The notes under the pieces: model-generated | What the model was told of the DNA's origin: nothing | Databases searched by the model: none | What the model saw: the letters and a program-made list of their open reading frames with translations, nothing else | Shown: positions 38,531 through 57,824 of the stretch, piece after piece | Position numbering within the stretch: the stretch's first letter is position 1 | How the letters are laid out: each line of letters begins with the position of its first letter | IMG/VR virus record: IMGVR_UViG_2843449061_000008 | Location: 1-64,000 of that record | DNA length: 64,000 nucleotides | Strand: one strand, 5' to 3' | Origin: a virus | Taxonomy: Duplodnaviria; Caudoviricetes | Program-made: the position numbers and the translations under genes

Positions 38531-40343
38531 CCTTCTCAACCGGATGGCGGCGGCTCTCGATCCGCCTCCGGAGATGGAACCCGACGAGTGGGCTGAGGAG
38601 AACATCGTCCTCCCCAAGAAGGAGGGGATGCCCGGCCCTTATCGGATGGCCCACACGCCGCAGTTCATCCCGTTCGTGCGCGCGTTCTGGGACCCGCGGT
38701 GGCGACGCATTGTCTTCGTCTGCGGCGCCCAGGAGGGGAAGTCCAGAGCCGTCCAGGCGGTGATCGGCAAGAAGCTGGACCATGAGCCGGCGCCGGTCAT
38801 CTATTACGGCCCGACCAAGACCTTCGTCGAGCGCACCATCGAGCCGCGCATCGTCGAGATGCTGAACTCCTCCAAGAGCCTGAAGGGCAAGACGCTCTGG
38901 GGGAAGAAGCAGAAGAAGACGCTGAAGATGGTCAGCGGTGCGCCGCTGATCCTGAGTTGGGCCAGTTCCGGTTCCGAGTTGGCCGGTCAGGAAGCCGCGT
39001 TGGTCTTCATCGACGAACGCGACCGCCTGGCCGACGACATCGACGGCGAGGGCGACCCGGTCGAGCAGGGCGAGGCGCGTATCGGCTCCTACGCCAACGG
39101 CAAGATCGGGATCATCTCGACGCCGAAGACCGGCGTCATCCGGAAGGAGCGGCATCCTGAAACGGGGCTGGAGCATTGGGCAATCGCCGACCTCAAGAAG
39201 GTCAACAGCCCAATCATCAAGCTCTGGTGGGAAGGTTCGCGCCACGAAATGGCGTGGCCCTGCCCAGAATGCGGCGACTACTTCATCCCGCACTCTGGAC
39301 TGCTGGATTGGGACGGAAAGGCTGACGGCACGGCGACGCCCGGCCAGGCGGCCCGCACGGTCAAGATGATCTGCGGATGCTGCGGGGTCCCGATCGCCGA
39401 GGCGCACAAGGAGCGGATGTGCGATCGCATGAGGCCGGTCGCGCCGGGGCAGCGGGTGGAGCCGGATGGAACGGTGGTGGGGCCTGACCCCGACACCGAT
39501 TGCTTCTCGATTTGGTCCAACGGGCTGATGTCCAAGTTTAAGTCCTGGGCCAAGCTGGTTCGGCGGTGGCTTTCCGCGCTGGCGTCCGGTGAGCCTGGGA
39601 AGGTGCAGGGCGTCGTCAACACGGGCTTCGGCGAACTGCACGCCGTCTCGGGCGACGCCCCGAAGCACTCCGCTGTCACGGACTGCAAGCTGCCCTACAA
39701 GCGGGGGCAGGTGCCCTACGGCGTCCAGCGGGTTGTTCTCACGGTCGACGTGCAGAAGCGCGGCGTCTATTGGGTGATGCGCGGGTGGGGCGCCCGGCGG
39801 GAATCCTGGCTGATCGACTACGGCTACCTGCCGGGCGAAACCGACGGCGCCGAGGTCTGGGACGAGCTGGAAGGCATCGTCCGGGCCGCTCTGCCCGGCA
39901 ACACAGGCGTCAACCTGCTGCTGATTGACTCCGGCTACCGGCCCGGCAAGCCGGCGGTGGTTCCGGAGAACGCCGTCTACGATTTCTGCCGGCGGTTCAG
40001 CCGCTCGTTCGCCCGGCCCATCAAGGGCGAGCGGTACCTGACCGGCAACAAGTGGTTCACCACCACGGACAACGACGTCGACAGCCGGGGCAGGGTGCGG
40101 AAATCCGCAGGCCTGATCCTGCACCGCCTCAACACGCACGAGTTCAAGAGCCGCGTGTTCGAGAAGATCACGCGGCGCAAGGAACTGGCTGGCGGCTGGC
40201 ATGTGCCGGAGGACGTCGACGACGCTTATGCCAAGCAGATCGTGTCGGAGACCTGCCGGTGGGTGGGTGGCAAGCCGATCTGGGACGAGTTGGGCGCCAA
40301 CCACTACCTCGACTGTGAGGTGGTCCAAGCGTCTCAGAGCTGA
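38511..40343 (+). CDS. terL: Terminase large subunit (GpA family), 5' part; truncated by the inserted element
   Basis: PDEWAEEN, GAQEGKS, IDERDR, ISTP, WPCPECG, LTVDVQ, LIDSG, IKG, NHYLDCE, then abrupt VVQASQS-stop. Confidence 0.93.
   Translation: MNRKASDLLNRMAAALDPPPEMEPDEWAEENIVLPKKEGMPGPYRMAHTPQFIPFVRAFWDPRWRRIVFVCGAQEGKSRAVQAVIGKKLDHEPAPVIYYGPTKTFVERTIEPRIVEMLNSSKSLKGKTLWGKKQKKTLKMVSGAPLILSWASSGSELAGQEAALVFIDERDRLADDIDGEGDPVEQGEARIGSYANGKIGIISTPKTGVIRKERHPETGLEHWAIADLKKVNSPIIKLWWEGSRHEMAWPCPECGDYFIPHSGLLDWDGKADGTATPGQAARTVKMICGCCGVPIAEAHKERMCDRMRPVAPGQRVEPDGTVVGPDPDTDCFSIWSNGLMSKFKSWAKLVRRWLSALASGEPGKVQGVVNTGFGELHAVSGDAPKHSAVTDCKLPYKRGQVPYGVQRVVLTVDVQKRGVYWVMRGWGARRESWLIDYGYLPGETDGAEVWDELEGIVRAALPGNTGVNLLLIDSGYRPGKPAVVPENAVYDFCRRFSRSFARPIKGERYLTGNKWFTTTDNDVDSRGRVRKSAGLILHRLNTHEFKSRVFEKITRRKELAGGWHVPEDVDDAYAKQIVSETCRWVGGKPIWDELGANHYLDCEVVQASQS
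40309..40315 (+). repeat. attL core TCGACTG
   Basis: Identical 7-mer at 57818..57824; surrounding 27 bp match at 20 of 27 positions. Confidence 0.85.
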
Positions 40344-40370
40344 AAATACCAATTTCAGAACAATGCATTA

Positions 40371-40402
40371 GGCCCTCTCGGACCCCTCCGGAGGGCCTTT
40401 GT
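40371..40402 (+). terminator. Possible hairpin terminator after the truncated terL
   Basis: GGCCCTC...GAGGGCC followed by TTTGT (weak U tract). Confidence 0.35.
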
Positions 40403-40448
40403 GGTCGGTAAAATCCACGTAACCGTCCGCGCCGATGATGCCGAATGG

Positions 40449-40516
40449 AATCAATGACTTAGGGCGCGGGCGCGGCAACGCCGCGACACATGAGTGACAC
40501 AAGGATGACGCAAGAG
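40449..40516 (+). promoter_or_regulatory. Left att arm: IHF consensus plus three arm-type repeats
   Basis: AATCAATGACTTA fits WATCAAN4TTR; GCGACACATGA, GTGACACAAGG, TGACGCAAGAG. Confidence 0.7.
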
Positions 40517-40533: not shown

Positions 40534-40818
40534 ATGAATCGAGCCTCCAACACGCCGTCCGGCGGACAGATGCTTTACGGCTACAGAGCGATTGCCGGGC
40601 ATCTTGGACTAACCGAACGGCAGAGCAAGCACCTTGTCGAAACGGGCCGTCTGCGCTTCCCCGAAGACGGGGTGGAAGGGGACGTGTTCAAGGTCGGGCA
40701 TGTCGTCTGCGCCCTGGTCTCCAGCCTGGAACGATGGAAGGAGAGGGCGGCCCGCGGCGAGCTGAGCGCCGAGAAGGAACCCGGCCATGAGCACTCCCCT
40801 GAAGGCGAGGACGCCTAA
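40534..40818 (+). CDS. HTH protein, Xis/AlpA-like (satellite)
   Basis: LYGYRAIAGHLGLTERQSKHLVETGRL; GGAG RBS; first gene inside attL. Confidence 0.7.
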   Translation: MNRASNTPSGGQMLYGYRAIAGHLGLTERQSKHLVETGRLRFPEDGVEGDVFKVGHVVCALVSSLERWKERAARGELSAEKEPGHEHSPEGEDA

Positions 40819-40841: not shown

Positions 40842-41327
40842 ATGACGCGCAAGCCCGCCAGCTTCAAGCACAAGGACGTGAACAGCCCGCCGGAACCGTT
40901 CGTGTGGATCTCGGCTGCGCTGCTTGTGTCCCCGGCATGGCGTGCGCGGTCGATCAACTGCGTGCGCTTGATCGAGTTCTTGCAGAAGGAGCACATGGCC
41001 CACGGCGGGAAGGAGAACGGCAACCTCGCGGCACCCTATGACCAGCTTCAGGCATGGGGGATCGGGCGGCGCCTGATCCGTCCGGCCATCGAGGAGGCGG
41101 AGACCCTGGGGCTAATTGCGGTGCGCCGGGGCGGGAAGCGCAACGCGGTGGAGGATCATGTCAGCCGCTACCGGTTGACCTTCTACCCATCCCGCATCGT
41201 GCCCACGGACGGGCTCCCGCATTGGGAAGCGCCGACCGATGAATGGAAGCGCATCACGCCCGAGATGGCCGAAGAAGCCACCTGCCGGGCCTCGTCGAAA
41301 ATTAGGGTCTCAGGTTCACCTTCGTGA
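40842..41327 (+). CDS. Putative winged-helix replication initiator (satellite)
   Basis: GNLAAPYDQLQAWGIGRRLIRPAIEEAETLGLI; iterons at its 3' end. Confidence 0.55.
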   Translation: MTRKPASFKHKDVNSPPEPFVWISAALLVSPAWRARSINCVRLIEFLQKEHMAHGGKENGNLAAPYDQLQAWGIGRRLIRPAIEEAETLGLIAVRRGGKRNAVEDHVSRYRLTFYPSRIVPTDGLPHWEAPTDEWKRITPEMAEEATCRASSKIRVSGSPS

Positions 41328-41433: not shown

Positions 41434-41593
41434 TCCTTCTAATATCTTGGGTGTATCCCCCGAGAAATCGGCACCTGCCGATCACCATCACCACCACCCG
41501 CCGCCGACAGGCGGCGCACTCGGAACCGGCCCTGGTCCTGACGACCTCCGCCGCCGGCCCCGCCTTCATCCCTTCACACCGGAGACCTTCGCC

Positions 41594-41845
41594 ATGTCGA
41601 GTCCCGACACGGACAGCATCATCGCGACCATTCCGAAGAATGCGACGGAAGAGGTTCGCATCACCCTGACCAGCTACAACGGCCATCCGCTCGTTGATCT
41701 GCGGACCTTCGTTGAATACCGGACGACCGGTGAGTCCGGCCCGACCAAGAAGGGGCTGACGGTCGCTGTTGCGCTGCTCCCCGCCATCATCTCCGGCCTT
41801 CAGGATGCCGAGGCTGAAGCCCGCCGCCGGGGGCTGTTGCCATGA
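41594..41845 (+). CDS. PC4/YdbC-family ssDNA-binding protein
   Basis: KNATEEVRITL..YNG...VDLR.F...GPTKKGLT. Confidence 0.82.
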   Translation: MSSPDTDSIIATIPKNATEEVRITLTSYNGHPLVDLRTFVEYRTTGESGPTKKGLTVAVALLPAIISGLQDAEAEARRRGLLP

Positions 41846-42343: not shown

Positions 42344-42447
42344 CCGTGGAGGGGCTTGTCGGGTTCGCGGGCTATCTCCGGACCCTCGCGCGGCAGACCG
42401 CATCCACGGGCCTTCTGAGCTTTAGCTAAGGGCCATCGGGAAAGGCA

Positions 42448-42495
42448 CGGGTCCTTCCGGGGCGATTCTACCGGGGGTGGCCCCCGCCTCAGCAC
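42448..42495 (+). other. Putative cos site of the satellite
   Basis: GGGTCCT at 42449 in the intergenic gap just before terS. Confidence 0.6.
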
Positions 42496-42575: not shown

Positions 42576-43064
42576 ATGGCGACACAAACCGAAGTCGGGA
42601 AGCATCTCGACCTGTCCGACCGCTCCGTGCGGGAGTTGCTGGAGCGGGGAGTCCTGCCGAACGCTGCCCGCGGCGCCCTCGACCTCGACTGGTGCCGAAC
42701 CTCCTACATCCGCCATCTGCGGGAAATGGCCGCGGGCCGGGCGACCGGGCCGGCCGGTGACGACCTGACCAGCGAACGCGCCCGACTGGCCCGCGAACAG
42801 GCGGACAACATCGCCCTGAAGAACGCGGCGCTGCGGAAGGAGCTGCTTCCACGCTCCGACATCACCCGCGCCGTGGTCGCGGCGTTCCAGATCGTGCGCG
42901 ACCGGCTGTCAGCCCTGCCGGCGCGGCTGGCTGGGCCGCTGGCCGCGACCACCGATCCGGCGGAAGTGCGCGGGCGGCTGAGCGACGCGGTGAACGGCGT
43001 GCTGGTGGAGCTGAGCGAAACGCGCGTTGTCGCCACCGTCGAGGAGCCGGCTGATGCGGCTTGA
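42576..43064 (+). CDS. terS: Terminase small subunit, Nu1-like (satellite)
   Basis: N-terminal HTH TQTEVGKHLDLSDRSVREL; LTSERARLAREQAD..ALKN. Confidence 0.9.
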   Translation: MATQTEVGKHLDLSDRSVRELLERGVLPNAARGALDLDWCRTSYIRHLREMAAGRATGPAGDDLTSERARLAREQADNIALKNAALRKELLPRSDITRAVVAAFQIVRDRLSALPARLAGPLAATTDPAEVRGRLSDAVNGVLVELSETRVVATVEEPADAA

Positions 43065-44949
43065 CCTTCCTGTGTCCGAGCTGGTGGCGGAAACGGCGAC
43101 TGGGTGGTTCCCGGCGCTGCGGCCGGCGCCGCGGTTGTCGCTGGCCGAATGGGCGGAGCAACACGCGCGCCTCTATGACGGTGGCGCCTTCAGGCCCTAC
43201 GCCTATCAACGGGCGATCCTCGACGCGATGACCGACCCGGCGGTGCGCCGAATCACGCTCATGAAGTCGGCGCGCGTCGGCTACACGCAAATGCTGTCGG
43301 CGGCGCTGGGCTACTTCGTTGCGCAGCGGCCTTCCAAGATCATGGTGGTTCAGCCCACCACCGAAGACGCCGAGGACTACAGCAAGGACACCATCGATCC
43401 CTTGGGCGAATGGCCGGTGCTGGCCGGGCTGCTGTCCGAGGTGAAGGCCAAGACCAAGGGCAACACCATCAAGCGCAAAGCCTTCCCCGGCGGTTCGCTG
43501 CGCATCACCGGGGCGAACAGCCCACGCGCCTTCCGCCGCATCGACCTCGACGTGCTGCTGTTCGACGAGGTGGATGGCTATCCGCCGATGGCCGGGAAGG
43601 AAGGTGACCAGATCGCGTTGGGCCTGAAGCGCCTGACGCAATCGCTGCATCCCTTGGCCGTGCTGGGGAGCACGCCGCTTCTCGACGGGGAAAGCAAGAT
43701 CGCGGACGCCTTCGCGGCCGGGACCATGGAGCGTTACCATTTGCCGTGTCCCTGCTGCGGGGAGCTGCAAGCGCTGGTGTGGGGCGACGGGACCGGGCCG
43801 GGCATGCGCTGGACGGACAACGACCCGGACACCGTGCATTACGTCTGCGTCAACGGGTGCCCCTTCGGCGAGGAACACAAGCTCGACCTGCTGGAGCGCG
43901 GGCGTTGGATCGGGGAGACGCCGCGCAAGGATCATCGCAGCTTTCACATCTGGAGCGCCTATAGCCCGCTGCCCGGCGCGGCGTGGCCCGAGCTGGTCAA
44001 AGAGTTCCTGGCCGCCAAGCGCGATCGGGAAAAGCTGCAAGTCTGGACCAACACCGTGTTGGGTGAGTGCTGGGTGGACCGTGGCGAGGCCCCGGAGTGG
44101 CGGCGGTTGTACGACCGGCGCGAGACCTGGGAGCCGGGCACCGTTCCGGCCGGCGGGCTTTTCCTGACGGTCGGCGCCGACGTGCAGCGCGACCGGATCG
44201 AGGTGAGCGTGTGGGCATGGGGCCGGGGCAAGGAGTCCTGGCTGATCGAGCATCGGGTGTTGCCGGGCGATCCGTTCCAGGCGGCTGTCTGGCGCGACCT
44301 GACTTCGCTGCTGGCGGAGACCTGGCGCCACGAAAGCGGCACCGACCTGTCGGTGATGATGACGGCCATTGACGCGGGCGACGGCGTGACGATGGAGGCG
44401 GTGAAGGCGTGGGTGCGCAACGCCGGCCCGCGCGTCATGGCGATCAAGGGCAGTTCGCTGGCGCTGGCGCCGATCCTGGGCCAGCCGTCCGCTGCGGACG
44501 TGAACTATGGCGGCCGGAAGATCGCGGGCGGGGTGAAGCTCTGGCCGGTGGGCACCAGCGCGGCGAAGTCCGAGTTCTACGGCTTCCTGCGCCTCGACCG
44601 CCCGACCGAGGAAAGCGGCGAGCCGTTCCCGGCCGGCTTCGTCCACATCCCGCAGCATGTCGGCGAAGAGACGGTGAAACAGCTCGTCGCGGAACATCGG
44701 GTGACCCGCGGCGGCAAGGGCCGGCGCAGCGTCACCAGTTGGGAAAAGCTGCGGGATCGGAACGAGGCCCTGGATTGCCGAAACTACGCCCGCGCGGCGG
44801 CGGCCCGGCAAGGGCTGGAGCGCATGAACGACCCGGCATGGTCGGAGCTGGAGCGGGCCTTGGGTGTGCCCCGTGATCCGGCTGTGCCGGTGGCCACAGC
44901 GGCGCCGACGGCGCGGCGGGTGTCCCGCTCGTCCTGGCTGTCGGAGTAG
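43054..44949 (+). CDS. terL: Terminase large subunit, GpA family (satellite), intact
   Basis: KSARVGYT, FDEVDGYP, GSTP, CPCCG, GADVQ, IDAGDG, IKG, RNEALDC. Confidence 0.95.
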   Translation: MRLDLPVSELVAETATGWFPALRPAPRLSLAEWAEQHARLYDGGAFRPYAYQRAILDAMTDPAVRRITLMKSARVGYTQMLSAALGYFVAQRPSKIMVVQPTTEDAEDYSKDTIDPLGEWPVLAGLLSEVKAKTKGNTIKRKAFPGGSLRITGANSPRAFRRIDLDVLLFDEVDGYPPMAGKEGDQIALGLKRLTQSLHPLAVLGSTPLLDGESKIADAFAAGTMERYHLPCPCCGELQALVWGDGTGPGMRWTDNDPDTVHYVCVNGCPFGEEHKLDLLERGRWIGETPRKDHRSFHIWSAYSPLPGAAWPELVKEFLAAKRDREKLQVWTNTVLGECWVDRGEAPEWRRLYDRRETWEPGTVPAGGLFLTVGADVQRDRIEVSVWAWGRGKESWLIEHRVLPGDPFQAAVWRDLTSLLAETWRHESGTDLSVMMTAIDAGDGVTMEAVKAWVRNAGPRVMAIKGSSLALAPILGQPSAADVNYGGRKIAGGVKLWPVGTSAAKSEFYGFLRLDRPTEESGEPFPAGFVHIPQHVGEETVKQLVAEHRVTRGGKGRRSVTSWEKLRDRNEALDCRNYARAAAARQGLERMNDPAWSELERALGVPRDPAVPVATAAPTARRVSRSSWLSE

Positions 44950-45038
44950 ACGGCCGGCCCCGGCGCCATCTCCGAAGTTGAACGAATCGGCCAACAGTCC
45001 TATGGTTAGGCAATTATACCCTATTGAGGATAATTGTC

Positions 45039-46484
45039 ATGCTGTCGGGACTGCGGCGGACCGTTGGGAACCTGTTGATCCGCAGCCTCGACGCGGCCGG
45101 AGCCGGCAAGCGCTGGGGAGCCAAGTCCCGCATGGTGAACCTGAACGCCGAGATGCTGGCCGGTGCGTCCATCGCGGCGCAGCGCGCGGCCTACTTCGCC
45201 CGCAACAACCCGAACGTCGCCGCCGCGGTGAATGCCCTGGTGAGCAATGCCGTGGGGACCGGGATCAAGCCGCGGTCCAAGCACCCCGATCCGGCGGTGC
45301 GCGATGCGCTGCACAGCTTGTGGGAGCGGTGGGAGCGGGTGGCCGATGCGTCGGGCCGGGCCGGCGGCTTCTACGCTCAACAGGCCCTGGCCGTGCGCGC
45401 AATGATCGAGGGTGGGGAATCCTTCGCCCGTCTCCGCGCCCGGCTGCCGGAAGACGGCTTGCCGGTGCCGCTTCAGGTGGAGCTTATCAGCCGGGACCAA
45501 GTTCCCTCGACGCAGTGGCAGGAAATCCGACCCGGCAACCCGGTTCGGGCCGGGATCGAGTTCGACACGCTGGGCCGGCGGGTGGCGTTCTGGGTTCTGC
45601 CCTTCAATCCCAATGACCCCACCATGCCGGTGCTGGCGCCGACCTGGGAGCCGAAGCGGGTTCCGGCGGAGGACATGTTGCACCTGTTCCGCGAGCTGGT
45701 GGAGAACCAGCTTCGGGGACTGTCCTGGCTGGCGCCGATCCTGCTGCGCGTGAAGGAGCTGGACCAGTACGAAGACGCCGCCCTGGTCCGCGCCAAGGTC
45801 GCGGCGATGCTGGCCGGCTTCATCATGAACAAGGACGACGCCAACCCGGCTTGGCAGCCGCCGGCCAACGCCGAGACGCCGACGCTGGAACCGGGTGTGC
45901 TGGTGCCGCTGAACCCCGGCGAGTCCGTCGAGTTCACCAACCCGCCCGACGACAAGAACTATGACCCGTTCACGAAGAACCACATGCGGGCCATCGCGGT
46001 GGGGATCGGGGCGACGTACTTCCAAGTCTCGGGCGACCTCAAAGACGCCAACTACTCCAGCCTGCGCGGCGGGCTGGTGGAGTTCCGCCGCAGTGTCGAG
46101 CAGCTCCAGCACCTCACGATCATCCCGCAACTCTGCGACCCGGTATGGCGCCGCTTCGTGACGCTGGCCGTGCTGTCCGGCGCCATCGACGCGCCGGACT
46201 TCTTCCGCGACCCCGAACCCTACCTGTCCGCTGAATGGCTGCCGCCGGCCTTCGATTGGGTGGACCCGCTGAAGGACGTGCGGGCCGAAGTCGAGGCCAT
46301 CGAGGCGAAGCTGAAAAGCCGGGCGCAGTCCGTCGCCGAACGCGGCTACGACGTCGAAACCCTGGACTCGCAGATCGCCGCGGACGTGCAGCGGGAACAG
46401 CGGCTTGGCCTGCCCACCACGGCGACGAAGGCCGCTGCGCCGACCCAGCCGGACGAACCCACGGAGCCCCCCGCCAATGGCTGA
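45039..46484 (+). CDS. Lambda-family portal protein (satellite)
   Basis: NAVGTGIKP, GIEFD..GRRVA.W, QLRGLSW, NYSSLR, WVDPLKD. Confidence 0.93.
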   Translation: MLSGLRRTVGNLLIRSLDAAGAGKRWGAKSRMVNLNAEMLAGASIAAQRAAYFARNNPNVAAAVNALVSNAVGTGIKPRSKHPDPAVRDALHSLWERWERVADASGRAGGFYAQQALAVRAMIEGGESFARLRARLPEDGLPVPLQVELISRDQVPSTQWQEIRPGNPVRAGIEFDTLGRRVAFWVLPFNPNDPTMPVLAPTWEPKRVPAEDMLHLFRELVENQLRGLSWLAPILLRVKELDQYEDAALVRAKVAAMLAGFIMNKDDANPAWQPPANAETPTLEPGVLVPLNPGESVEFTNPPDDKNYDPFTKNHMRAIAVGIGATYFQVSGDLKDANYSSLRGGLVEFRRSVEQLQHLTIIPQLCDPVWRRFVTLAVLSGAIDAPDFFRDPEPYLSAEWLPPAFDWVDPLKDVRAEVEAIEAKLKSRAQSVAERGYDVETLDSQIAADVQREQRLGLPTTATKAAAPTQPDEPTEPPANG

Positions 46485-48339
46485 CACGTTCACCCGCGCC
46501 ATGGGCGCGACCACGCCGACCACGCTCAACCGCGAGGCCCGCACCGTCGAGGTGGTGGCGCTGTCCGGCCCGGCGCCCGCCGTGCGCCCGGCGCCCGCTC
46601 CGGACGGCACCCGTTCCGCCTGGATCGAGGAGCTGGACGCGGCCGGCGCCGACCTCTCCCGGTTCCGCGGCGGCCCGGCGCTGAAGGATCACCGCAACAC
46701 CACCGACGCCGCCGTGGGCACGGTGGCGGATGCGCGAGTCGACGGTGACCGGATCACCGGAACCGTCCGCTTCGACACCAGCGCCACGGCCGCCGACCTC
46801 ATGGCGAAGGTCGAGGCGGGCAGCGTACGCGGCGTGAGCCTGGGCTACAGCGTCCAGAAGTGGCAGCGGGCCGGTAAGCGCGACGGGCTGCCCGTCTTCC
46901 GTGCCATCGGCTGGGCGCCGCATGAGCTGAGCTTTACCCCTGTGCCGGTGGATGCCGGCGCCACCGTCCGTTCCCAAGGAGGCATCATGGACGACGACCA
47001 GACCACCACCGAGGCGGACGCCACGGCGGATACCACCACCACCGACACCAGCGCCCGCGCGGTGGACACCACCGCCAACCGGGCCGGGATCAACGGTCAG
47101 ATTCGGACGATGGTCCGCGCCGCTGGCCTGGAGATCGCCACCGCCGACCGGCTGATTGACGACGGCGCCGACCTCGACCGCGCCCGCGCCGCGGTGTTCG
47201 ACGCCATGCTGGCCCGCTCCAGCGGCCGGCCGCTCGCTGCCGTCCAGGTCCTGCACGATCACGACGATCCGGGGGCTGTGGTGGATCGCATGGCGACGGC
47301 TTTCGCAGCCCGCGCCACGGCGCACCTGCCGGAAGCGCACCGCGTCCAGATGCCGGAACAGGCCCGCGCCTATGCCGGCCGCTCCCTCCTCGACCTCGCC
47401 GCCGAGCTGGCCGACCGGCGCGGGAACCCGATCGGCACGCGGCACATGTCGCCCGCGGACCTCTACCAGCGCGCCATGACGACGGGCGACTTCCCGGTGC
47501 TGCTGGCGAACGCGGCCAACAAGACCCTCCTGCCGGCCTATCAGGCGGCGGCGCCGACCTACCGCCGGTTCTTCGCCCGGCGCGACTTCCGCGACTTCAA
47601 GCCCGCGTCGTTCGCCCGCGTCGGCGACTTCCCGGTGCCGCTGGCCGTGGGTGAGAACGGCGAGTACAAGCACGGCGCCATCAGCGAGAGCGGCGAGACG
47701 GTCACGCTGGGCGAGTATGGCCGGGTGGTCATGTTCAGCCGGAAGGCGTTGGTCAACGATGACCTGGGCGCCTTCGCCGACCTCCCGAGCAAGGCCGCCC
47801 TGCGCTGCGCCGATTGGGAAAACTCGGTGGCCTGGGCGCTGGTGGTCTCCAACCCGAAGCTGTCGGACGGCAAGACGCTGTTCCATGCCAGCCATGGCAA
47901 CCTCGCTTCCGCCGGCGGCGCCATCGACCTCGCGACCGTCTCCGCCGGCGAAGCGGCGATGATGAAGCAGACCAGCCTCGACGGGCTGAAGCTGAACCTC
48001 AAACCCGCCGTCCTGGCGACCGGGCCGGACCAGTTCACCGCGGCCCGTCAGTTCGTCAGCACCGCTGTTGCGCCGACCACGGCCGCCGCGGTCAACCCGC
48101 TGGCCGGGACGCTGACACCCGTGGGTGACGCGAACCTGCCGGGGCCGGGCTGGTATCTCATGGCCGAGCCGGCGGCGCTGGAGACCTTCGTTTACGGCTA
48201 CCTGCAGGGCCAGTCCGGGCCGATCATCACGCCCGAGCCGGGCTTCGACGTGGCCGGGGTGAAGGTCAAGCTCACCATCGACTTCGCCGTGGGCGCGGTG
48301 GACTACCGCGGCGCCTACTTCAACCCCGGCGCGGCCTGA
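46477..48339 (+). CDS. Prohead protease-major capsid fusion (satellite)
   Basis: ALKDH, VSLGY, ELSF protease motifs; TTGDFP.LL, DFK, YGR...SR.ALVNDDLGAF capsid motifs. Confidence 0.9.
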   Translation: MADTFTRAMGATTPTTLNREARTVEVVALSGPAPAVRPAPAPDGTRSAWIEELDAAGADLSRFRGGPALKDHRNTTDAAVGTVADARVDGDRITGTVRFDTSATAADLMAKVEAGSVRGVSLGYSVQKWQRAGKRDGLPVFRAIGWAPHELSFTPVPVDAGATVRSQGGIMDDDQTTTEADATADTTTTDTSARAVDTTANRAGINGQIRTMVRAAGLEIATADRLIDDGADLDRARAAVFDAMLARSSGRPLAAVQVLHDHDDPGAVVDRMATAFAARATAHLPEAHRVQMPEQARAYAGRSLLDLAAELADRRGNPIGTRHMSPADLYQRAMTTGDFPVLLANAANKTLLPAYQAAAPTYRRFFARRDFRDFKPASFARVGDFPVPLAVGENGEYKHGAISESGETVTLGEYGRVVMFSRKALVNDDLGAFADLPSKAALRCADWENSVAWALVVSNPKLSDGKTLFHASHGNLASAGGAIDLATVSAGEAAMMKQTSLDGLKLNLKPAVLATGPDQFTAARQFVSTAVAPTTAAAVNPLAGTLTPVGDANLPGPGWYLMAEPAALETFVYGYLQGQSGPIITPEPGFDVAGVKVKLTIDFAVGAVDYRGAYFNPGAA

Positions 48340-48557: not shown

Positions 48558-48904
48558 CCATGCGGAACTTCGTGCAAGCCGGCTGCAACCTCGACCTCAC
48601 CGCCCCGCGCGCCCTGGCGTCGGGGGAAGGTTTCATCGTCGGCGCCCTGTTCGCCATCGCCAGCACCGACGCGGCGAGCGGTGGCGCCCTGGTGGGCGTG
48701 ACCGAGGGCGTGTTCATCCTGCCGAAGAAGACGGCCGCCGTGATCGCCCTGGGCGGCCGGGTGAGCTGGGACGATGCCGTGCACCAGTGCGACGCACCCG
48801 GCGCCGGGCTCTACCCGGTGGGCGTGGCTGTGGAGGCCGCCGGCAACGGGGCCAGCACCGTGACGGTGCGGCTGGACGGCGTGAGCACTGCGGCGGCTGC
48901 GTAG
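48554..48904 (+). CDS. DUF2190 capsid cement/decoration protein
   Basis: MRNFVQAG..L.LTAP...SG, G.VSWD, VRLDG. Confidence 0.88.
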   Translation: MTMRNFVQAGCNLDLTAPRALASGEGFIVGALFAIASTDAASGGALVGVTEGVFILPKKTAAVIALGGRVSWDDAVHQCDAPGAGLYPVGVAVEAAGNGASTVTVRLDGVSTAAAA

Positions 48905-50684: not shown

Positions 50685-50954
50685 TGTAACACACCTTGAC
50701 CGCCCTGTGTTGCAGCCTGTAACACAGGGTGTGTTGCAGGCTGTGTTGCAGGTGATCCGCCATGGCGACCCCGACCATTTCCGTTCGCGTATCTCCAGAA
50801 CATCAAGGGCTTGTCCGAGACGTGGCGGCCCGGCTGAAGGCCGATCCCGGCTTTGCTGACGTGCTGCGCGCCGCGCTGGGGGAGGGTGTGACACAGCCTG
50901 TCATACAGCCTGTGTTACGGCTTGGATCGCGGGGTGTGACACAGGCTGCAACAC
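50685..50954. repeat. Array of ~10 TGTAACAC/GTGTTGCA-type octamers, ~12-bp spacing, both orientations
   Basis: Five copies upstream of and five inside CDS 50762..51328. Confidence 0.75.
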
Positions 50955-51328
50955 AGGTGGACGGCCAGACCGCTCACCAGCGCCAGCCCGCGCCCGAAGG
51001 CCAGCCCGATCCTGCGGCCGGCGCCCTGGCCGATGTCCTGCGCCGGGTGGAGGTGCTGGAGGCGCATGTTGCCGACCTCCGGGGCAAGGCTGGCCGGCAA
51101 GCCAAGGTAGCCAGCCAACAGCAACGGCTGATCGCCGCCGCGGGGCTGGAAGGCGTCATGACCCGCCTGCAATACGCCGCGCACATCGGCGTGTCCAACC
51201 CGACCCTGACGCGCTGGGTGAAGCGGGGAATGCCGGTGCAGGACGATGGGCTGCTCGACGTCGAGGCGGTGGAGAGCTGGCGGAAGGCGAACGAGTCCCG
51301 GCTCCTGGCGGAGAGGGTGAAGGGGTAG
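50762..51328 (+). CDS. Two-domain DNA-binding protein (RHH-like N-terminus, MerR/Nu1-type HTH C-terminus)
   Basis: TISVRVSPEH; MTRLQYAAHIGVSNPTLTRWVKRGMP. Confidence 0.65.
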   Translation: MATPTISVRVSPEHQGLVRDVAARLKADPGFADVLRAALGEGVTQPVIQPVLRLGSRGVTQAATQVDGQTAHQRQPAPEGQPDPAAGALADVLRRVEVLEAHVADLRGKAGRQAKVASQQQRLIAAAGLEGVMTRLQYAAHIGVSNPTLTRWVKRGMPVQDDGLLDVEAVESWRKANESRLLAERVKG

Positions 51329-51536: not shown

Positions 51537-52274
51537 ATGGAAATAACTCGAATCGAAAAATTTTCGGAATCGCAAGATTTCGGCCGCGAGACTCCAAAAT
51601 TCGAACTTGATTATTTTGGTAAAGATCTAATGGACCATAATGGTATAAAGTGGATTTATTTGATATGCCCTCATTGCGGGACGCGTGTTAAATTTTCACC
51701 CATACATGTTGTCGTGGTTAAGGGGGAAGAGCTTGGCATGCTGACTCGTGATTACCATTATCTTTGCAAATGCGAGTATTGCAACGATGTTGTTTATGCC
51801 AAATTTTGGGAAGTCGACTTTGATCCTGATTGGCATTTCGCGTATGAGATGCATTTCCCGGCGGCTATATTCAATGGAAGCGTTGATCTGCCAGAGCAAG
51901 TCAATGTATCGTTTTCAGAGGCCACGAAGTGTTTAAACGCGGATGCCAGCTTAGCTACTCTTGTTATGTGCCGTCGCACTGTTGAAGCTATAGTAAGAGA
52001 CAAGGGGGGTTCGAGTGGTGGTGGCCTATATTCTGAAATAGATAAGTTAATCAAGGATGGCACCCTCCCTGATTCCATGGGTCGCCTTGCGAATGTTATT
52101 AGGATGGTAGGCAATAAGGGTGCGCATGCATCTGAACTTGCCACGGATAGCAAGCAGGCTAGGGATGCGTATGAACTTACGAAGAAAATGATTGATGTAA
52201 TTTATCTGGTTCCAAGGCAGGTGCATGAAATAAGGAGCAAGCTTGAACAAGAAAAATCCGTTAAAACGGAGTGA
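51537..52274 (+). CDS. DUF4145 (HEPN-like) protein with N-terminal Zn ribbon
   Basis: CPHC..CEYC; A.LVMCRRTVE, IRMVGNKGAH. Confidence 0.85.
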   Translation: MEITRIEKFSESQDFGRETPKFELDYFGKDLMDHNGIKWIYLICPHCGTRVKFSPIHVVVVKGEELGMLTRDYHYLCKCEYCNDVVYAKFWEVDFDPDWHFAYEMHFPAAIFNGSVDLPEQVNVSFSEATKCLNADASLATLVMCRRTVEAIVRDKGGSSGGGLYSEIDKLIKDGTLPDSMGRLANVIRMVGNKGAHASELATDSKQARDAYELTKKMIDVIYLVPRQVHEIRSKLEQEKSVKTE

Positions 52275-52326
52275 GGAATAATATAGGATATGCCGACTGA
52301 ATAAAGACGTAAGTAATTAGTTTTTC

Positions 52327-53358
52327 ATGATACGTCAATCAATCCAAAAATGGAGTGCTAGGCAAATGAAAGCAACAACAAGTGAGCTTCGCGTCAAAAA
52401 CCACAACGAGTGGCCCGCTGTCGAATTATTCCCCTGTGAGATTGAGCTTCTACAGAGGTTGGCGCAAAAGAATATGCAGCAAATCTTTATCACGGCTAGG
52501 TTCATGCCTGATGAAAAGGATGAACCATTTAACGCCGCAGTAGGACACATATTGGACTGTCTGGATTCCCTACCAAAACGTCCTGACGCAGCTTTTGATA
52601 GCCTATACAAGGTTATTGATAGCAACCTTGCGGAATTTTCTGAGCCCAATTTGTCCCCCATGCATAGCACTGTAAAAGCCTTTTTTTTGGCTCACCCATC
52701 CGAATGGAGCAAAATTACCGAGATCTTGTCTGCTAATTTGCCTCAGCAAACCGCAGACTACGCGGCATCGCGTATTCTCGATTGCCACGTTGATGGCGGG
52801 CTTCCCCATGCCGATGAAATAAAGAAAAGAGCCAGCAGAAGCCTAGGGAAGCAGCGCTATAAAGATTTCTGTGAAAAATATCTTGTAGAAAACCCGCAGA
52901 TGCAAGGTAGCTACAGCATGCCATACGAAAACAGGAGGAATGCTGGCCGCTTGATGAAGTTACTATTTAGATTAAAGAAATCCGGTGATTGCTCTGGCGA
53001 TGTCAGCAAAATTGAGGCAAGTGACCAGATGGGGGTGCAATACAATAGTCTGGATTTGGGGGAAGACTGCAATAGGCTTTCTTCTGATGAAAAGTTAAAG
53101 GTGATAATGGAGGCTTGTCTTTATACGTACAGAAATGAGCGCTTCCACGGAGATGCATTTTCGCCATTCAGAAGCGGAAAAGCAAAACTTAAGACGTATG
53201 CGCATGCCTATTTTATGTTGAATGCGGCTTACGTTATTGTGCTTGGCATGCTTCATTTGCAAGGGAAAGGGGGTATTTCTATTTCGCATATTGTTGAGAT
53301 AACAATTCGGTCTATGCAGCAATTCGCGGCATTCTTTGAAGATGTTGTTAACGAATAG
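52327..53358 (+). CDS. Low-GC protein with HEPN-type RxxxxH motif
   Basis: YTYRNERFHG near the C-terminus. Confidence 0.65.
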   Translation: MIRQSIQKWSARQMKATTSELRVKNHNEWPAVELFPCEIELLQRLAQKNMQQIFITARFMPDEKDEPFNAAVGHILDCLDSLPKRPDAAFDSLYKVIDSNLAEFSEPNLSPMHSTVKAFFLAHPSEWSKITEILSANLPQQTADYAASRILDCHVDGGLPHADEIKKRASRSLGKQRYKDFCEKYLVENPQMQGSYSMPYENRRNAGRLMKLLFRLKKSGDCSGDVSKIEASDQMGVQYNSLDLGEDCNRLSSDEKLKVIMEACLYTYRNERFHGDAFSPFRSGKAKLKTYAHAYFMLNAAYVIVLGMLHLQGKGGISISHIVEITIRSMQQFAAFFEDVVNE

Positions 53359-53560
53359 AATGTCGAGGACGGTACTAGACGGCCCGTTTGTAGCTCGGTA
53401 ACTGCGGCGGCGTACTGCTGCTCCAACTCAGCCACATACGTGATGGCTTGCCTAGCCATACCCTCCAAGGCGCCGAGCCCAAGCCGCGCTGCGCGGCCTT
53501 CTGAGGGGGGCTTACGGAGTAGGGCAGGGCGGCTCATCTTGGCCGGACTGCTGGCACCCG

Positions 53561-53601
53561 AAAAGCAGAAGCCCGCCGGGTCTCCCGCGGCGGGCTTTCT
53601 T
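53561..53601. terminator. Hairpin between convergent accessory genes
   Basis: AGAAGCCCGCCG...CGGCGGGCTTTCT. Confidence 0.5.
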
Positions 53602-53726
53602 AGGGCGCTGGGTGGCGATCCAGCTGACGGTGATTGGGTTCTGTGGCGTATGGGGCAACCTGGGTTGCCCCCTCTGCCTTGGGCGCGTTGGGCGGGATTC
53701 TGAAGGTTAGTCATAGTGCGAGAAAC

Positions 53727-54215
53727 TTAGGTTTCGGGACTCTTCTTCGATTTGACGAATTTGTATCCTTCTCGGAAGCCATGAAGCTGCCCGCAAAGGA
53801 AATTAATGGAAGCCCTCAATTGTATTGCGGTATCGTTCGCACTTTTCCTGGCTTCTGAAGTTCCGCTGACGCCAACATCATCTAAAAATTTATTTATATA
53901 TTCATCTATTTTAGGATGCTCAATATTATGAGCTATCTTGTTTCTAAGAGTGTTTAGCTTCTCGGCGCTGTCTAAAAGCGCATCAACATGGCGCACAGGG
54001 AGTAGTGCTCTTACTAGCCGTAATCTTTGCGCAAATCGAAATTGATCAACATCAATAGCGGTGGGGTTTGCTAAAAGATCCACCATAAAACCATTAACTA
54101 TTTCTTCCATCAGGAGATGCCCCTTTAGCACTACTAACGTGACATCGTTTGATGTTGGAAACAGCCTTTCAAATCGCTCATCAAATTCCTCAAAACTTGT
54201 TTTTTCGAATGACAT
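53727..54215 (-). CDS. Small HEPN-type protein
   Basis: VLKGHLLMEE...LNTLRNKIAH. Confidence 0.75.
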   Translation of the reverse strand: MSFEKTSFEEFDERFERLFPTSNDVTLVVLKGHLLMEEIVNGFMVDLLANPTAIDVDQFRFAQRLRLVRALLPVRHVDALLDSAEKLNTLRNKIAHNIEHPKIDEYINKFLDDVGVSGTSEARKSANDTAIQLRASINFLCGQLHGFREGYKFVKSKKSPET

Positions 54216-54353: not shown

Positions 54354-54605
54354 TCATCGTCCTTCGTCGGCTTTCCTCAACCGTACCCCCGCACCCCCGC
54401 CATTCTCCGGGATGAACTCGACGCCAGCCGCTTCCATGGCCGTGCGGATAGCGATGAGGGTGCGCGGCTGAGGTGCTGTATCCCCTTTCTCAAACCGGAC
54501 AAGGGATCGCTTCGCAACCTCTCCGTTGGTTGCTTCGGCAAGCTCATCTTGACTCCAGTTCAAGAGTCCCCTGGCCGCACGGCATTGGGCTGGTGTTATC
54601 GACAT
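54354..54605 (-). CDS. XRE-family HTH repressor (satellite)
   Basis: ITPAQCRAARGLLNWSQDELA...ENGGGAGVRLRK. Confidence 0.9.
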   Translation of the reverse strand: MSITPAQCRAARGLLNWSQDELAEATNGEVAKRSLVRFEKGDTAPQPRTLIAIRTAMEAAGVEFIPENGGGAGVRLRKADEGR

Positions 54606-54667
54606 GGCACTTTTAGTGACATTCATTGTTGACCGATGCCATCACGATATGGCACTTTTAGTGACAT
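54604..54667. promoter_or_regulatory. Two identical 19-bp near-palindromic operators ATGGCACTTTTAGTGACAT
   Basis: 54604..54622 (overlaps the XRE start) and 54649..54667, in the divergent gap. Confidence 0.8.
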
Positions 54668-54744: not shown

Positions 54745-55962
54745 ATGGCTGATTCCGAGAATACCACACCCTTGCCCGGCGCCGGCCGCCGGAAAACGGC
54801 TGGCGCCCTGGTGCCGACCAAGCCCGCCGACCTGCCGCCGCTGACCCCCGACCAACTGAACGACCAAGACGGCGAGCCGCGGGTGCTCGACCTCGCTCTT
54901 GCTGAGCGTCTGGGCTTCTCCGACGTTCACAAGGTCCGCGCCCTGATCGAACGGAACCGCTCCGAGCTGGAGAGCTACGGAGTTATTTCCGCCGCCGTGG
55001 CGGAAAACACCGATCCCAAGGGCCGAGGCCGCCCCGGCAAAGCCTACTACCTGAACGAAGGCCAAGCCCTGGTCATCTGCGCCCTGTCCCGCACCCCGCA
55101 AGCCGCCCTGGTGCGCCGGCAGATCATCGAGGTGTTCTTGGCTTACCGGCGGGGCGTGCTGCCCGTGGCCGAGGAACAGCAACAGACCATCGCCCACCTC
55201 GCCGCGGAGCTGGCCGACCTGCGCCAGCGCGTCGCCCTGATCGGCGCGGCCCCGCATATCCGGGCGATCTTCAAGGGCGGCTACCTGCCGGGGTCCACCG
55301 CTTTGACGGTGCAGGACATCAGCATGGAATGGGACGAGCCGCGCATCTCCGACCAGCGGCTTGCGGTCCAGCTCGGGCTGCCGGACATGCACACCGTGCG
55401 CAAGCTGATCCGTTCGCACCGGAACCTGTTGGCCGGCCTGGGCCGGATCGTGAGCGTCCCGCAGGTGAAGGAGACGGACGGGAAGGGGCGCCCGCTCGGC
55501 GCCTTCTGGCTAACCGAGTTGCAGGCCCTGGCCGTCTGCGGGCTGGTGAGCGGCAATGTCGCGTCGGCGACCCGAACCCGGCTGATCAAGGTGTTCGCCG
55601 AGTTCCGCCGCGGGCAGGAGGAGCTTGCGGCAGCCGGCGGCATTCGCGAGGTGCGGAACAACGCCGAGATGGTGGTGATGCTGGATGAGCGGGTGGCGGC
55701 CCTGGAGGCGAACGCCCGCACCGAGTCCCGCACGGAGGTGCGGCGCCAGCGCCGGCGGGTTGCCGACGAGGCGCTTACAGAGGATGGGGACTTGCTCTAC
55801 GGCGGCCCGCGCATCGCGGCCTATCTGGGCGTTCGGCTGAAGTCCGTCGAACACATGATTCGTTCCGACAAGCTGCCTCACTTCCGCATGTCCGGGCGGG
55901 TGTGTTCCCGCAAGACCCTCCTGGGCGCGTGGCTGGACGGTAAGGAGGTGGTCAATGCTTGA
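54745..55962 (+). CDS. Antirepressor-like protein: duplicated Rha-like domains plus C-terminal HTH
   Basis: Two copies of PR..D..LA..LG..D.H.VR.LI..(N/H)R..L...(Y/F).L.E.QAL..C.L...I.VF; C-terminal LYGG..IA.YLG. Confidence 0.75.
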   Translation: MADSENTTPLPGAGRRKTAGALVPTKPADLPPLTPDQLNDQDGEPRVLDLALAERLGFSDVHKVRALIERNRSELESYGVISAAVAENTDPKGRGRPGKAYYLNEGQALVICALSRTPQAALVRRQIIEVFLAYRRGVLPVAEEQQQTIAHLAAELADLRQRVALIGAAPHIRAIFKGGYLPGSTALTVQDISMEWDEPRISDQRLAVQLGLPDMHTVRKLIRSHRNLLAGLGRIVSVPQVKETDGKGRPLGAFWLTELQALAVCGLVSGNVASATRTRLIKVFAEFRRGQEELAAAGGIREVRNNAEMVVMLDERVAALEANARTESRTEVRRQRRRVADEALTEDGDLLYGGPRIAAYLGVRLKSVEHMIRSDKLPHFRMSGRVCSRKTLLGAWLDGKEVVNA

Positions 55963-56482
55963 GCCATTATCCCGCCGCTCCATCCTGGCCGGCGCGTCCG
56001 CGGTGGCCCTGGGCGGCCCGGCGCCGGCGGATGCTGTGGATCCTTTCGGCGCCGCTATCGCCTCGCTCGAAGGGCATGCGCCCGCCGCTGAGTCCGACCC
56101 CGCCATTGCGGTCTGCGCGCGGTGGGTGAAGGCGTGGCGGGATGTGTCGGAGGCCGCCGACCGGTCAGGGGATCGGATGGGGCAGCTCCGTGCCGCGGGC
56201 TTCACCGATGAGGCGATAAGCGAGGACCCCGAATACAGGGTCTTGGATGCCTCCTTCAGCCGCCTGGAGCGGGAAGAGGACGATCTGCGCAACGAAGTCC
56301 CTACGACCCCTGCCACGACCCTCCATGGCGTCATTGCGAAGCTGAGCGCTTGGCGGATGGAGGAGGAGCACTACGGGACGGGGGGTGATGAGAGGTTCGT
56401 GCACTCCGCTCTCTCCGACCTCCGCCGGCTGGTGCATGGCGAGGCCGGCCCGGCACTGCTGCCTGATCGCCTGGGCGCCTGA
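55955..56482 (+). CDS. Hypothetical protein with twin-arginine-like N-terminus
   Basis: LSRRSILAGASAVALGG; PATTLHGVIAKL. Confidence 0.65.
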   Translation: MLEPLSRRSILAGASAVALGGPAPADAVDPFGAAIASLEGHAPAAESDPAIAVCARWVKAWRDVSEAADRSGDRMGQLRAAGFTDEAISEDPEYRVLDASFSRLEREEDDLRNEVPTTPATTLHGVIAKLSAWRMEEEHYGTGGDERFVHSALSDLRRLVHGEAGPALLPDRLGA

Positions 56483-56599
56483 CCGGCCCGGCCGCACTGA
56501 CGGGGTGCGCGATCTGCGCACCCACCCAACCACACCTGAACCGCGGCGACGGCGCTGGGCATCCCCGGCGCCGCGCCCGTTCCAATCTGGAGAACCATC

Positions 56600-57796
56600 A
56601 TGGCTTCTGTGAACAAGCGCCGTTGGTCCCACAACGGCGTCGAAAAAGAGGCGTGGATTGTCCGCTACGTTGATCACTCCGGAAAGCGGAGGGGGAAGAC
56701 GTTCGATAAGAAAAAGGACGCCGACGCTTATAAAAGAAAAGTGGAAGCGGACATGGATAACGGGCTGCATGTTCCGGATGGCGATACCGACACGATCAAG
56801 GGCATGGGGGAGAAGCTATTAAGGCATCTTGAGCTTCGTCAGTTGAACGGCGGACTGTCGAGGCAGAGGCTTTACATTTACAGACTCGCTTTTGACCGGG
56901 GTGTTGTGCCGTACATTGGGAACGTCAAGCTTTCAGAATTGAATTTCTCGCACCTTGACGCATGGTGGTTGGAGCTGTCGAAGACGAGTATTTCGGAAAG
57001 GACGCGCCGCGATTACCTGAAGTGTCTGAAAGTCCTTGAGAGCTTCGCCATAAAGCGCGGAGCGTCGAAAAAGGCCGTCGTTCCCGGCTTCATCAAGGAG
57101 CTTGGCACACTGCCGGAAAAGCCGATCCGGGTGCTGAACTCCGAACAGGTCGGCCGGCTGCTTGAGGTGGTCGAGGAGCGCCCCAAGGGCAAGCAGCGGC
57201 GGACACACGCGATCCTGCGGTGCGCCGTCCATCTCGCCGCTTTCTGCGGCCTTCGGTTCGGGGAGATCATGGGGCTGACCGTGGTCAACCTGGACCTCGA
57301 CGCGCAGGTGATCCAGGTCCGGCACAGCCTGAACGTCTTCGGAGAGCTGAAGGGACCGAAGACCGCGGCCGGCCGGCGCGACGTGCCCATCCCGTCGCAC
57401 GTCGCCGAGATGCTTCGTGAATGGCTGCGGACCTCCTTCATCCCGAACGAGCGGGGGTTGGTGTTCCGCACGGACGGTGGCGGTGACATGGCCCTGACCA
57501 ACTTTCACAAGTTCTGCTGGAAGCCTCTGCTGCGCCGGGCCGGGCTTTGGGACGAGGGCGGGGACCAGTACCATTTTCACGCCCTTCGGCACTTCGCGGC
57601 GAGCTTCATGATTCAGAACGGGCTGCCGGTGACCGACGTGGCGTCGATGCTCGGGCACCGCAAGTTCGACACCACCTTGCAGGTCTACGCGCACCCCATC
57701 GTCGGGGGGAGCCGCCGGCTTGAAACCGCCGAGACCATGGCCCGGCTGCTGTTGGTCAGTGACACAAGGGAGACACAAGAGACCCTAACACCTTGA
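56600..57796 (+). CDS. int: Tyrosine recombinase / integrase (satellite), intact
   Basis: GLRFGEI, KGPKT, FHALRH, LGH, VYAH; ends 21 bp before the attR core. Confidence 0.95.
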   Translation: MASVNKRRWSHNGVEKEAWIVRYVDHSGKRRGKTFDKKKDADAYKRKVEADMDNGLHVPDGDTDTIKGMGEKLLRHLELRQLNGGLSRQRLYIYRLAFDRGVVPYIGNVKLSELNFSHLDAWWLELSKTSISERTRRDYLKCLKVLESFAIKRGASKKAVVPGFIKELGTLPEKPIRVLNSEQVGRLLEVVEERPKGKQRRTHAILRCAVHLAAFCGLRFGEIMGLTVVNLDLDAQVIQVRHSLNVFGELKGPKTAAGRRDVPIPSHVAEMLREWLRTSFIPNERGLVFRTDGGGDMALTNFHKFCWKPLLRRAGLWDEGGDQYHFHALRHFAASFMIQNGLPVTDVASMLGHRKFDTTLQVYAHPIVGGSRRLETAETMARLLLVSDTRETQETLTP

Positions 57797-57824
57797 TTTG
57801 AAAGGGCGGAAATTACTTCGACTG
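57759..57824 (+). promoter_or_regulatory. Right att arm and attR core
   Basis: GTGACACAAGG, AGACACAAGAG; IHF consensus on the minus strand at 57786..57798; TCGACTG at 57818..57824. Confidence 0.75.

Follow-up and report, generated by a model that had tools for sequence, protein, structure and literature searches.

Architecture of the locus

The window analysed here, the first 64 kb of the 88,101-bp IMG/VR provirus record IMGVR_UViG_2843449061_000008 (GC content 65.5%; record limits set computationally), contains a prophage whose gene for the large terminase subunit, terL, is split by a 17,509-bp insert with an integrase gene at its right end. The closest TerL relatives are found in Azospirillum argentinense and other Azospirillum species, and the outer element, referred to as the helper, is by its gene content a complete ~70-kb lambdoid temperate Azospirillum prophage. 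Its early genes encode RecT, an exonuclease, a helicase, methyltransferases and a replication protein; its late genes continue beyond the window with an FII-like attachment protein, a tape measure and tail-tip genes, reaching ~85 kb of the 88.1-kb record. No helper late gene other than terL is broken. The following features of the helper and of the two junctions are relevant:

1-1107, minus strand: helper integrase
14745-15407, minus strand: CI-like repressor
37820..38530, plus strand: small terminase subunit TerS (phrog_57, E 4.9e-14)
38511..40315, plus strand: 5' part of helper terL, with the GpA ATPase domain and the nuclease domain up to profile position 280/294 (PF05876, PF20454; 98% identity to P0001)
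40309..40315, plus strand: attL identity block TCGACTG; the wider att similarity covers 20/28 positions and mimics the target codons (DNA alignment A2)
57818..57824, plus strand: attR identity block TCGACTG; same junction in the loci L117, L118 and L119
57825..58023, plus strand: 3' part of helper terL, the last 66 codons, a putative portal-docking tail whose type co-varies with the portal lineage
58035..62569, plus strand: gpW-like adaptor, lambda-family portal, S49 protease and capsid

Read from 38511, the helper frame reaches ...ANHYLDCE and then ends in VVQASQS, followed by a stop at 40343. TCGACTG flanks the insert on both sides, at 40309-40315 and at 57818-57824, and the satellite span covers positions 40316-57824. 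Past the second copy, the helper frame resumes as (NYF)DCEMMQEAAAEILK... and continues until the stop at 58023. Joining the flanks 38511-40315 and 57825-58023 yields 2004 nt that encode 667 aa with zero internal stops. A previous sequence-only reading of this DNA had described the split after NHYLDCE, the 7-bp block common to both junctions, the uninterrupted rejoined gene and the gpW, portal, protease and capsid genes downstream of it; all four are confirmed, and the block fits the short identity block of a tyrosine recombinase.

The rejoined TerL is 95% identical over residues 1-658 to an uninterrupted 674-aa TerL of A. argentinense (P0001). Five uninterrupted homologues in the protein alignment A1 and three intact loci in the DNA alignment A2 also run straight over the join, so the search for full-length TerL proteins that the same reading had suggested was successful. 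The motif LD[CA][ERQ] is present in 90 of the 120 TerL homologues listed, and in all 90 it is followed by 34-102 residues (median 63), including a conserved EMMQEAAAE...LLPPLP segment. The helper TerL of the integrated state has 7 unrelated residues after its LDCE motif in place of the last ~60 (66 codons). Since each of the 90 motif-bearing proteins has at least 34 residues beyond the motif, the present end of the helper TerL is not a natural one, and the possibility that such proteins normally end ~8 aa after DCE can be dismissed. The right junction is matched at 100% identity by two further NCBI assemblies (L118, L119), indicating that it is not an assembly chimera, a concern that had likewise been raised.

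Gene content of the insert

The insert is predicted to be a capsid-forming, tail-less phage satellite, because head and packaging genes are present, while no tail, lysis or replication family was found among its 21 open reading frames (ORFs) with Pfam, PHROGs and PADLOC. A tblastn search of the helper tail proteins against the satellite was also negative. Nearly all satellite genes are located on the plus strand, as are the helper late genes. From left to right, the insert contains:

40370..40398, plus strand: GC-rich hairpin with a short T run, terminator-like, 55 nt inside attL (fold energy -25.9 kcal/mol, z -4.7)
40493..40504, plus strand: 12-nt motif AGTGACACAAGG, a candidate integrase arm site, with a second copy at 57757-57768 and a shorter one at 57771-57778 (k-mer comparison of the reconstructed attP ends)
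40534..40818, plus strand: e1, small HTH_17-like protein, candidate excisionase or regulator (phrog_18541, E 1.8e-4)
40842..41327, plus strand: e2, conserved left-arm gene without family match
41447..41845, plus strand: PC4/Whirly-like ssDNA-binding protein (PF02229, E 1.3e-9; homologues in L048 and L055)
42448..42490, plus strand: satellite cos-like site, 127 nt upstream of satellite terS
42576..43064, plus strand: satellite TerS (phrog_57, E 6.5e-29)
43027..44949, plus strand: complete GpA-type satellite TerL (PF05876, PF20454), 25% identical to the helper TerL
45024..46484, plus strand: lambda-family portal (PF05136, E 3.9e-94)
46405..48339, plus strand: protease-major capsid fusion (phrog_4523, E 1.4e-165; PF25209)
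48342..48557, plus strand: gpW-like head-tail adaptor Ad1 (phrog_2545, E 2.2e-17)
48554..48904, plus strand: decoration (cement) protein, end of the head-module block (PF09956)
50762..51328, plus strand: e13, TerS-N/MerR-like HTH protein, a backbone gene shared at 93% with a sister satellite (see below)
51537..54215: low-GC cargo (45-54% GC), consisting of a defence gene and three genes without assigned function, delimited by composition
51537-52274: DUF4145/PD-T7-4-like single-gene defence candidate within this cargo (PF13643; PADLOC PD-T7-4, E 6.4e-13)
54354..54626, minus strand: XRE/C-protein-like repressor, divergent from the Rha-like gene and conserved in the sister element, L104, L107, L113 and L116
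54730..55962, plus strand: Ant/Rha-like regulator with a C-terminal HTH_17-like domain
55955..56482, plus strand: e20, conserved gene upstream of int, 51% identical in the sister element
56600..57796, plus strand: satellite tyrosine integrase (int), in the same orientation as terL and with a stop codon 21 nt before the att core (PF00589)

The packaging, head and regulator genes and int are all open and of full length, and the integrase retains the catalytic residues R219, K254, H327, R330, H353 and Y363 (alignment A3). At the position homologous to the att site, the satellite's own terL reads CTGGATTGC and thus differs from the att core. The small protein e1 resembles the C-terminal HTH_17-like part of the Rha-like protein, and e1-like genes are located directly upstream of int in L037, L050, L054 and L059; a PDB sequence search with e1 gave no match. 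Rha-like homologues with 55-83% identity adjoin related integrases in L020, L032, L034 and L113. Another small gene follows the PC4-like gene, ahead of the satellite cos-like site.

The attL hairpin was recognised by folding; a simple promoter and terminator scan of 40.2-42.7 kb called nothing. It may insulate the satellite, or it may terminate helper late transcription. An Rfam scan of 36-58.5 kb with E values up to 0.1 gave no match, hence no P4-like C4/isrK immunity RNA. In the cargo, R-x4-H motifs (RNERFH, RNKIAH) occur beside the PD-T7-4-like gene in the two genes at 52327-53358 and 53727-54215 (minus strand), neither of which matches a HEPN family.

Two other identities of the insert were considered. 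An RcGTA-like cluster was rejected in view of the GpA-type terminase, the lambda-family portal and the integrase with its att sites, and an intron, intein or homing endonuclease in terL was rejected in view of the 17.5-kb size, the at least 20 genes and the tyrosine integrase.

Packaging sites and origin of the head module

A cos-like site of the helper lies at 36631..36675 on the plus strand, 1.2 kb upstream of helper terS, and consists of a cosQ-like GGGTCCTT, ~20 nt and a G-rich cosN-like block; it is also present in the helper relative L025. The helper and satellite cos-like sites both align with the two termini of the phage lambda genome (L111/L112) and show the lambda arrangement upstream of terS, with a cosQ-like heptamer, ~20 nt and a G-rich cosN-like block. 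A 15-mer around GGGTCCTTCC has exactly two copies in the window, one in each of these sites, compared with 0.05 expected. In six relatives of the satellite head module (L104-L109) and in the element embedded in L017, the same cos-like motif precedes terS by 120-142 nt.

The cosN-like blocks differ between satellite and helper. In a blastn comparison of the satellite with the rest of the provirus, no shared segment was detected, and only the short cos-like motif is common to both. Because its cosN-like block differs from that of the helper, and because no other DNA is shared, the satellite is predicted to have its own packaging specificity.

The head module (42444-48902) is a discrete block in blastn comparisons, with 84-85% DNA identity to L103 and L104 and 94% to L108 from the portal to the decoration gene. 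L104, L106 and L107 are 13-17-kb records in which a left-end integrase and primase genes are followed by this head module (proteins 47-91% identical). By gene content, these three look like alphaproteobacterial counterparts, outside a helper, of the capsid-forming phage-inducible chromosomal islands (cf-PICIs). Thus, the module circulates among small satellite-like elements.

An integrase clade directed at prophage late genes

Homologues of the satellite integrase number at least 374 at an E value below 1e-30, and wherever the source is named it belongs to the Alphaproteobacteria: Azospirillum, Xanthobacter, Sphingomonas, Sphingobium, Ancylobacter, Lichenihabitans, Terrihabitans and Novacetimonas, together with Methylobacterium and Faunimonas. 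Analysis of 38 IMG/VR loci with integrases 33-48% identical to that of the satellite showed that a co-oriented phage late gene, mostly 5'-truncated relative to the query or profile, starts within ~250 nt downstream of int in 22, and that a late gene lies within 600 nt in 5 further loci. Relatives of at most 32% identity (L003, L005-L012) adjoin non-phage genes and were left out of the late-gene clade. The targets are:

GpA terL near residue 100: L017, L030, L031
Terminase_1 terL: L020, L057
lambda-family portal near residue 200: L034
lambda-family portal near residues 380-398: L042, L046, L047, L019
HK97-type portal: L037, L055
other portals: L041, L048
head protease: L035
several capsid families: L043, L044, L052, L056, L059, and L032 and L038 among the five within 600 nt
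a virion protein: L050
central tail fibre J: L058

In NCBI/Logan assemblies, a GpA terL starting near residue 212 follows a 53%-identical integrase (L116), and in a third lambdoid prophage (L115) a 61%-identical integrase lies ahead of a terL remnant that begins at the window's position. In four cases, the target gene is seen on either side of the insert, together with a short identity block: the window, L017 (10.4-kb insert), L055 (10.85 kb, with an 11-bp core) and L027/L034 (14.9 kb). In all four, a hairpin with a T run is located 40-60 nt inside attL. The question whether this type of integrase is always flanked by a split terL therefore has a divided answer, since some relatives are found at terL and others at portal, protease, capsid or tail fibre genes.

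In a quick maximum-likelihood tree, 39 integrases form a clade with an SH-aLRT value of 99, and the integrase of the helper-embedded PICIs (HE-PICIs) stands apart on a long branch. The clade is alphaproteobacterial and shows a tropism for prophage late genes, and the window's satellite would be a member of a family built on it. Close helper relatives carry LDAE instead of LDCE, with a core TCGACGC instead of TCGACTG (window 40306-40317 compared with L025:11810-11825, L027 and L115:8075-8095), and the 61%-identical integrase of L115 is found at an LDAE-type site. This variation could reflect an arms race between target and integrase.

Sister elements and mobility

In L117, an integrase of 99% identity and a right arm of 97% identity, with an unchanged core, adjoin the 3' end of terL in another prophage, which encodes a ClpP protease, a cap_E capsid, a sheath, a tube and a baseplate. 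Homologous codons in two different helper types have therefore served as entry site for one and the same integrase, which argues for recent mobility.

A 14.9-kb sister satellite splits the portal gene in the record IMGVR_UViG_2846933512_000001, of which L027:3058-3903 and L034:11218-12114 are parts. Its helper is 88-97% identical to the window's helper in TerL and tail genes. Common to the sister and the window's satellite are e13 (93%), the repressor, the Rha-like protein (68-72%) and e20; the sister differs in its 44%-identical integrase, a short tape-measure-like gene, the lack of terminase genes and a cos that is nearly identical to that of its helper. Thus, one backbone is combined with two integration specificities and two packaging strategies. 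The terL at L027:1020-2826 is readable only via four frame changes, which are probably due to assembly error and not to decay.

In the closest diverged relative, L113 (integrase 86%, Rha-like protein 83%, capsid 92%), int is immediately followed by an IS66 transposase in place of the expected target fragment, and the contig ends there (L113:11249-12844).

Among the loci examined, the type of the extreme TerL C-terminus co-varies with the portal lineage. The body of the helper TerL is 97-98% like L025 and P0001, but in the C-terminal tail and in the portal (72%) the helper follows the L026 type; a mosaic boundary is located ~70-80 nt downstream of the att site (window 57825-57900, alignment A1). 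The helper tape measure ORF of 3242 aa (G000:C1:67856-77584) is unusually long for a siphovirus-type tail. In the helper early region, DNA methyltransferases lie beside a PAPS-reductase-like protein (22468-24931; phrog_12882, E 1.8e-216), and this region may be a DNA-modification module.

Proposed cycle and alternative explanations

The insert is probably a mobile, capsid-forming, tail-less satellite that integrated via its tyrosine recombinase into LDCE, a conserved nuclease-domain motif of the GpA-type helper terL, and made helper packaging conditional on its excision. HE-PICIs were described in Enterobacteriaceae, with terL among the listed sites and Eco567.11capE of E. coli NRG857c as the founder (Tommasini, Mageeney and Williams 2023, NAR Genom Bioinform; PMC10111431). 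Upon induction, an HE-PICI composite is excised, then replicated, and the satellite is excised thereafter (PMC10111431). Excision, circles and particles of the window's satellite are proposed from this precedent. By analogy, the helper's own integrase would excise the 88-kb composite, which would then be amplified by the helper replication genes; the satellite would be copied passively, since no replication gene was found in it. The satellite integrase, possibly together with e1, would excise a 17.5-kb circle and thereby restore terL. The satellite TerS and TerL would recognise their own cos and fill capsids made of the satellite's portal, protease-capsid fusion, adaptor and decoration protein, while the helper would supply the remaining head-tail joining proteins (FII-like), the tail and lysis.

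Before satellite excision, the helper TerL would be without its portal-docking end and the composite would be too long for the helper head, as its 88 kb correspond to ~125% of the ~70-kb helper genome. Helper packaging would be conditional on satellite excision for these two reasons. In phage lambda, the C-terminus of gpA is the prohead-docking end. This role, the conserved segment after the motif and the co-variation of the C-terminus with the portal suggest that the 614-aa TerL of the integrated state cannot package. The anatomy proposed in the sequence-only reading, an integrase-bearing element of satellite size that splits a terL restored by joining, therefore stands; the packaging gate that it added is one we infer.

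Several points weigh against this interpretation. The FII-like head-tail attachment gene located between the decoration gene and e11 in L108 is missing here, which could be the main sign of decay. No primase or replicase was found among the satellite ORFs, yet a 17.5-kb circle would have to give rise to packageable concatemers. The attL junction preserves the catalytic part of TerL up to profile position 280/294, so that loss of function depends on an essential C-terminal tail, which is assumed here. Finally, the assignment of e1 as an excisionase or regulator is a weak one, resting on an E value of about 1e-4. The missing FII-like gene and the lack of replication genes, together with the low-GC cargo behind the head module and the truncated appearance of many HE-PICI helpers (PMC10111431), would agree with a decayed, immobile remnant of a small temperate phage or satellite that killed the outer prophage, a graveyard rather than a partnership. 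Such a remnant is improbable, considering that the packaging, head, regulator and integrase genes are intact, that both att cores are preserved and the joined flanks give a perfect frame, and that no second late gene of the helper is broken. The near-identical integrase and att arm in another helper type argue for recent mobility, and the right junction of the composite is kept at 100% identity in two further assemblies.

The satellite could also be real but neutral for its helper, if the 614-aa TerL with its ATPase and nuclease domains still packages and no gate exists. Integrative elements usually preserve their target gene, as is generally known and also stated for HE-PICIs (PMC10111431); attP mimics target codons here, and the LDCE motif is kept along with the whole catalytic core. 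The replacement, however, consists of only 7 unrelated residues, compared with at least 34 residues after the motif in 90/90 homologues, including their conserved segment. The co-variation of the extreme C-terminus with the portal fits the textbook prohead-binding role of gpA, and the 88-kb composite exceeds the 70-kb cos-to-cos unit by 25%; a neutral insertion is accordingly rather unlikely. An assembly or provirus-calling artefact that joined unrelated phage contigs is a concern for any computationally delimited provirus, and the related L027 does show terL frameshifts. It has next to no likelihood in this case, because the frame is restored exactly over the 7-bp repeat, the right junction is found in the two NCBI assemblies and, with another helper, in a third genome, and the same architecture is seen in L017, L055 and L027/L034.

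A mobile satellite that gates its helper through terL thus remains the preferred explanation, and it can be extended, tentatively and with a low probability, to an integrase clade unrelated to that of the enterobacterial HE-PICIs that specialised independently on prophage late genes across Alphaproteobacteria, to a stop and hairpin inside attL that cut the late operon, and to a docking-dead TerL that competes with the intact one. If this extension were true, the attL stop and terminator hairpin could block transcription of the helper late operon (portal, capsid, tail), and a docking-dead TerL that retains its TerS-binding, ATPase and nuclease parts could compete with intact TerL. Excision of the satellite would then become a precondition for any helper virion to be made, and a swap of the int module would retarget one backbone to other late genes or to helpers with other tail types.

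Relation to known satellites and gene switches

The sequence-only reading had assumed that no satellite family with such a lifestyle had been described. This does not hold, as helper-embedded PICIs were already published in 2022/2023 (PMC10111431), and its principle was therefore known. In both systems, 10-18-kb satellites with a tyrosine integrase lie co-oriented inside a late gene of their own lambdoid helper, the target gene is disrupted without a replacement in attP (here 66 codons are exchanged for 7), and the version of the target gene that the satellite itself encodes has a different sequence at the att site. The integrase clades target many late genes, including terL, portal, protease and capsid genes, and the satellites contain variable, captured-looking late genes and defence cargo.

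The differences concern lineage, hosts and genome plan. The satellite integrase is only 23% identical over 181 aa to the 11capE integrase (pairwise E 0.001) and falls outside the 11capE clade, and the hosts are Alphaproteobacteria instead of Enterobacteriaceae. Here, int is the last gene beside attR and the late genes occupy the upstream half, in contrast to the HE-PICI order with int and AlpA upstream, followed by Bro, primase and late genes. Neither Phage_AlpA nor a primase had a Pfam or PHROGs match among the satellite ORFs. In HE-PICIs, a doubled TGTATTGC motif stands at fixed distances on both attP arms; here it is absent, the sequence occurs once each at 53037 and 53821 within the cargo, and the arms carry a different repeat of 12 nt. 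The terminator-like hairpin just inside attL and the satellite's own complete terminase and cos are further differences, as is the GpA-family terL target, which is not mentioned in the main or supplementary text of PMC10111431.

The cf-PICIs, exemplified by EcCIEDL933, are ~15-kb elements with genes for head and packaging proteins (capsid, protease, portal, connector, TerS, TerL) and none for a tail (Alqurainy et al., bioRxiv 10.1101/2022.09.08.507074). The same set of genes is found in the window's satellite, which likewise lacks tail genes, and packaging that is independent of the helper terminase, with only tails (and lysis) taken from the helper, is predicted from its genes. Unlike the cf-PICIs, which occupy chromosomal sites and contain int/alpA/rep at the left end and an HNH protein, this satellite is embedded in its helper; alpA, rep and HNH had no match among its ORFs, leaving only int from this module. 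It also differs in its lambda-type GpA terminase with cosQ/cosN, and L104, L106 and L107, with a left-end integrase, primase and an 80%-identical head module, fit the cf-PICI plan better.

Elements that split a gene and restore it by excision as a developmental switch, known under the terms regulated gene integrity and active lysogeny, are represented by skin/sigK, phi10403S/comK and SpyCI/mutL. The split gene of the window differs from these in being part of another mobile element, and it is the parasite, not the cell, that would benefit from the switch. The sequence-only reading had drawn the parallel to an excision-controlled switch acting on the gene of another phage; the likeness is genuine, and the point had already been made for HE-PICIs (PMC10111431). 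Thus, the lifestyle is known, while the lineage, the host group, the architecture and the target family are new.

Implications

Helper-embedded satellites have been documented in a single study, limited to Enterobacteriaceae and to one integrase clade. The same strategy is now seen in Azospirillum, Methylobacterium, Sphingomonas, Xanthobacter, Faunimonas and others, with a different integrase lineage and genome plan and including fully capsid-forming satellites. The Azospirillum elements provide a comparison set in which one helper lineage carries a satellite in either the terL or the portal gene, the same integrase occurs in siphovirus-like and sheath-tailed helpers, and one satellite has its own cos and terminase while another mimics the helper cos. 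This set could reveal how target choice, packaging strategy and helper interference are linked. For prophage annotation, it follows that 'broken' terminase genes in proviruses may be occupied att sites and not signs of decay. The different lineage and hosts argue that the helper-embedded lifestyle evolved more than once, and that embedding is of general use to satellites in locating a helper, travelling with it and throttling it.

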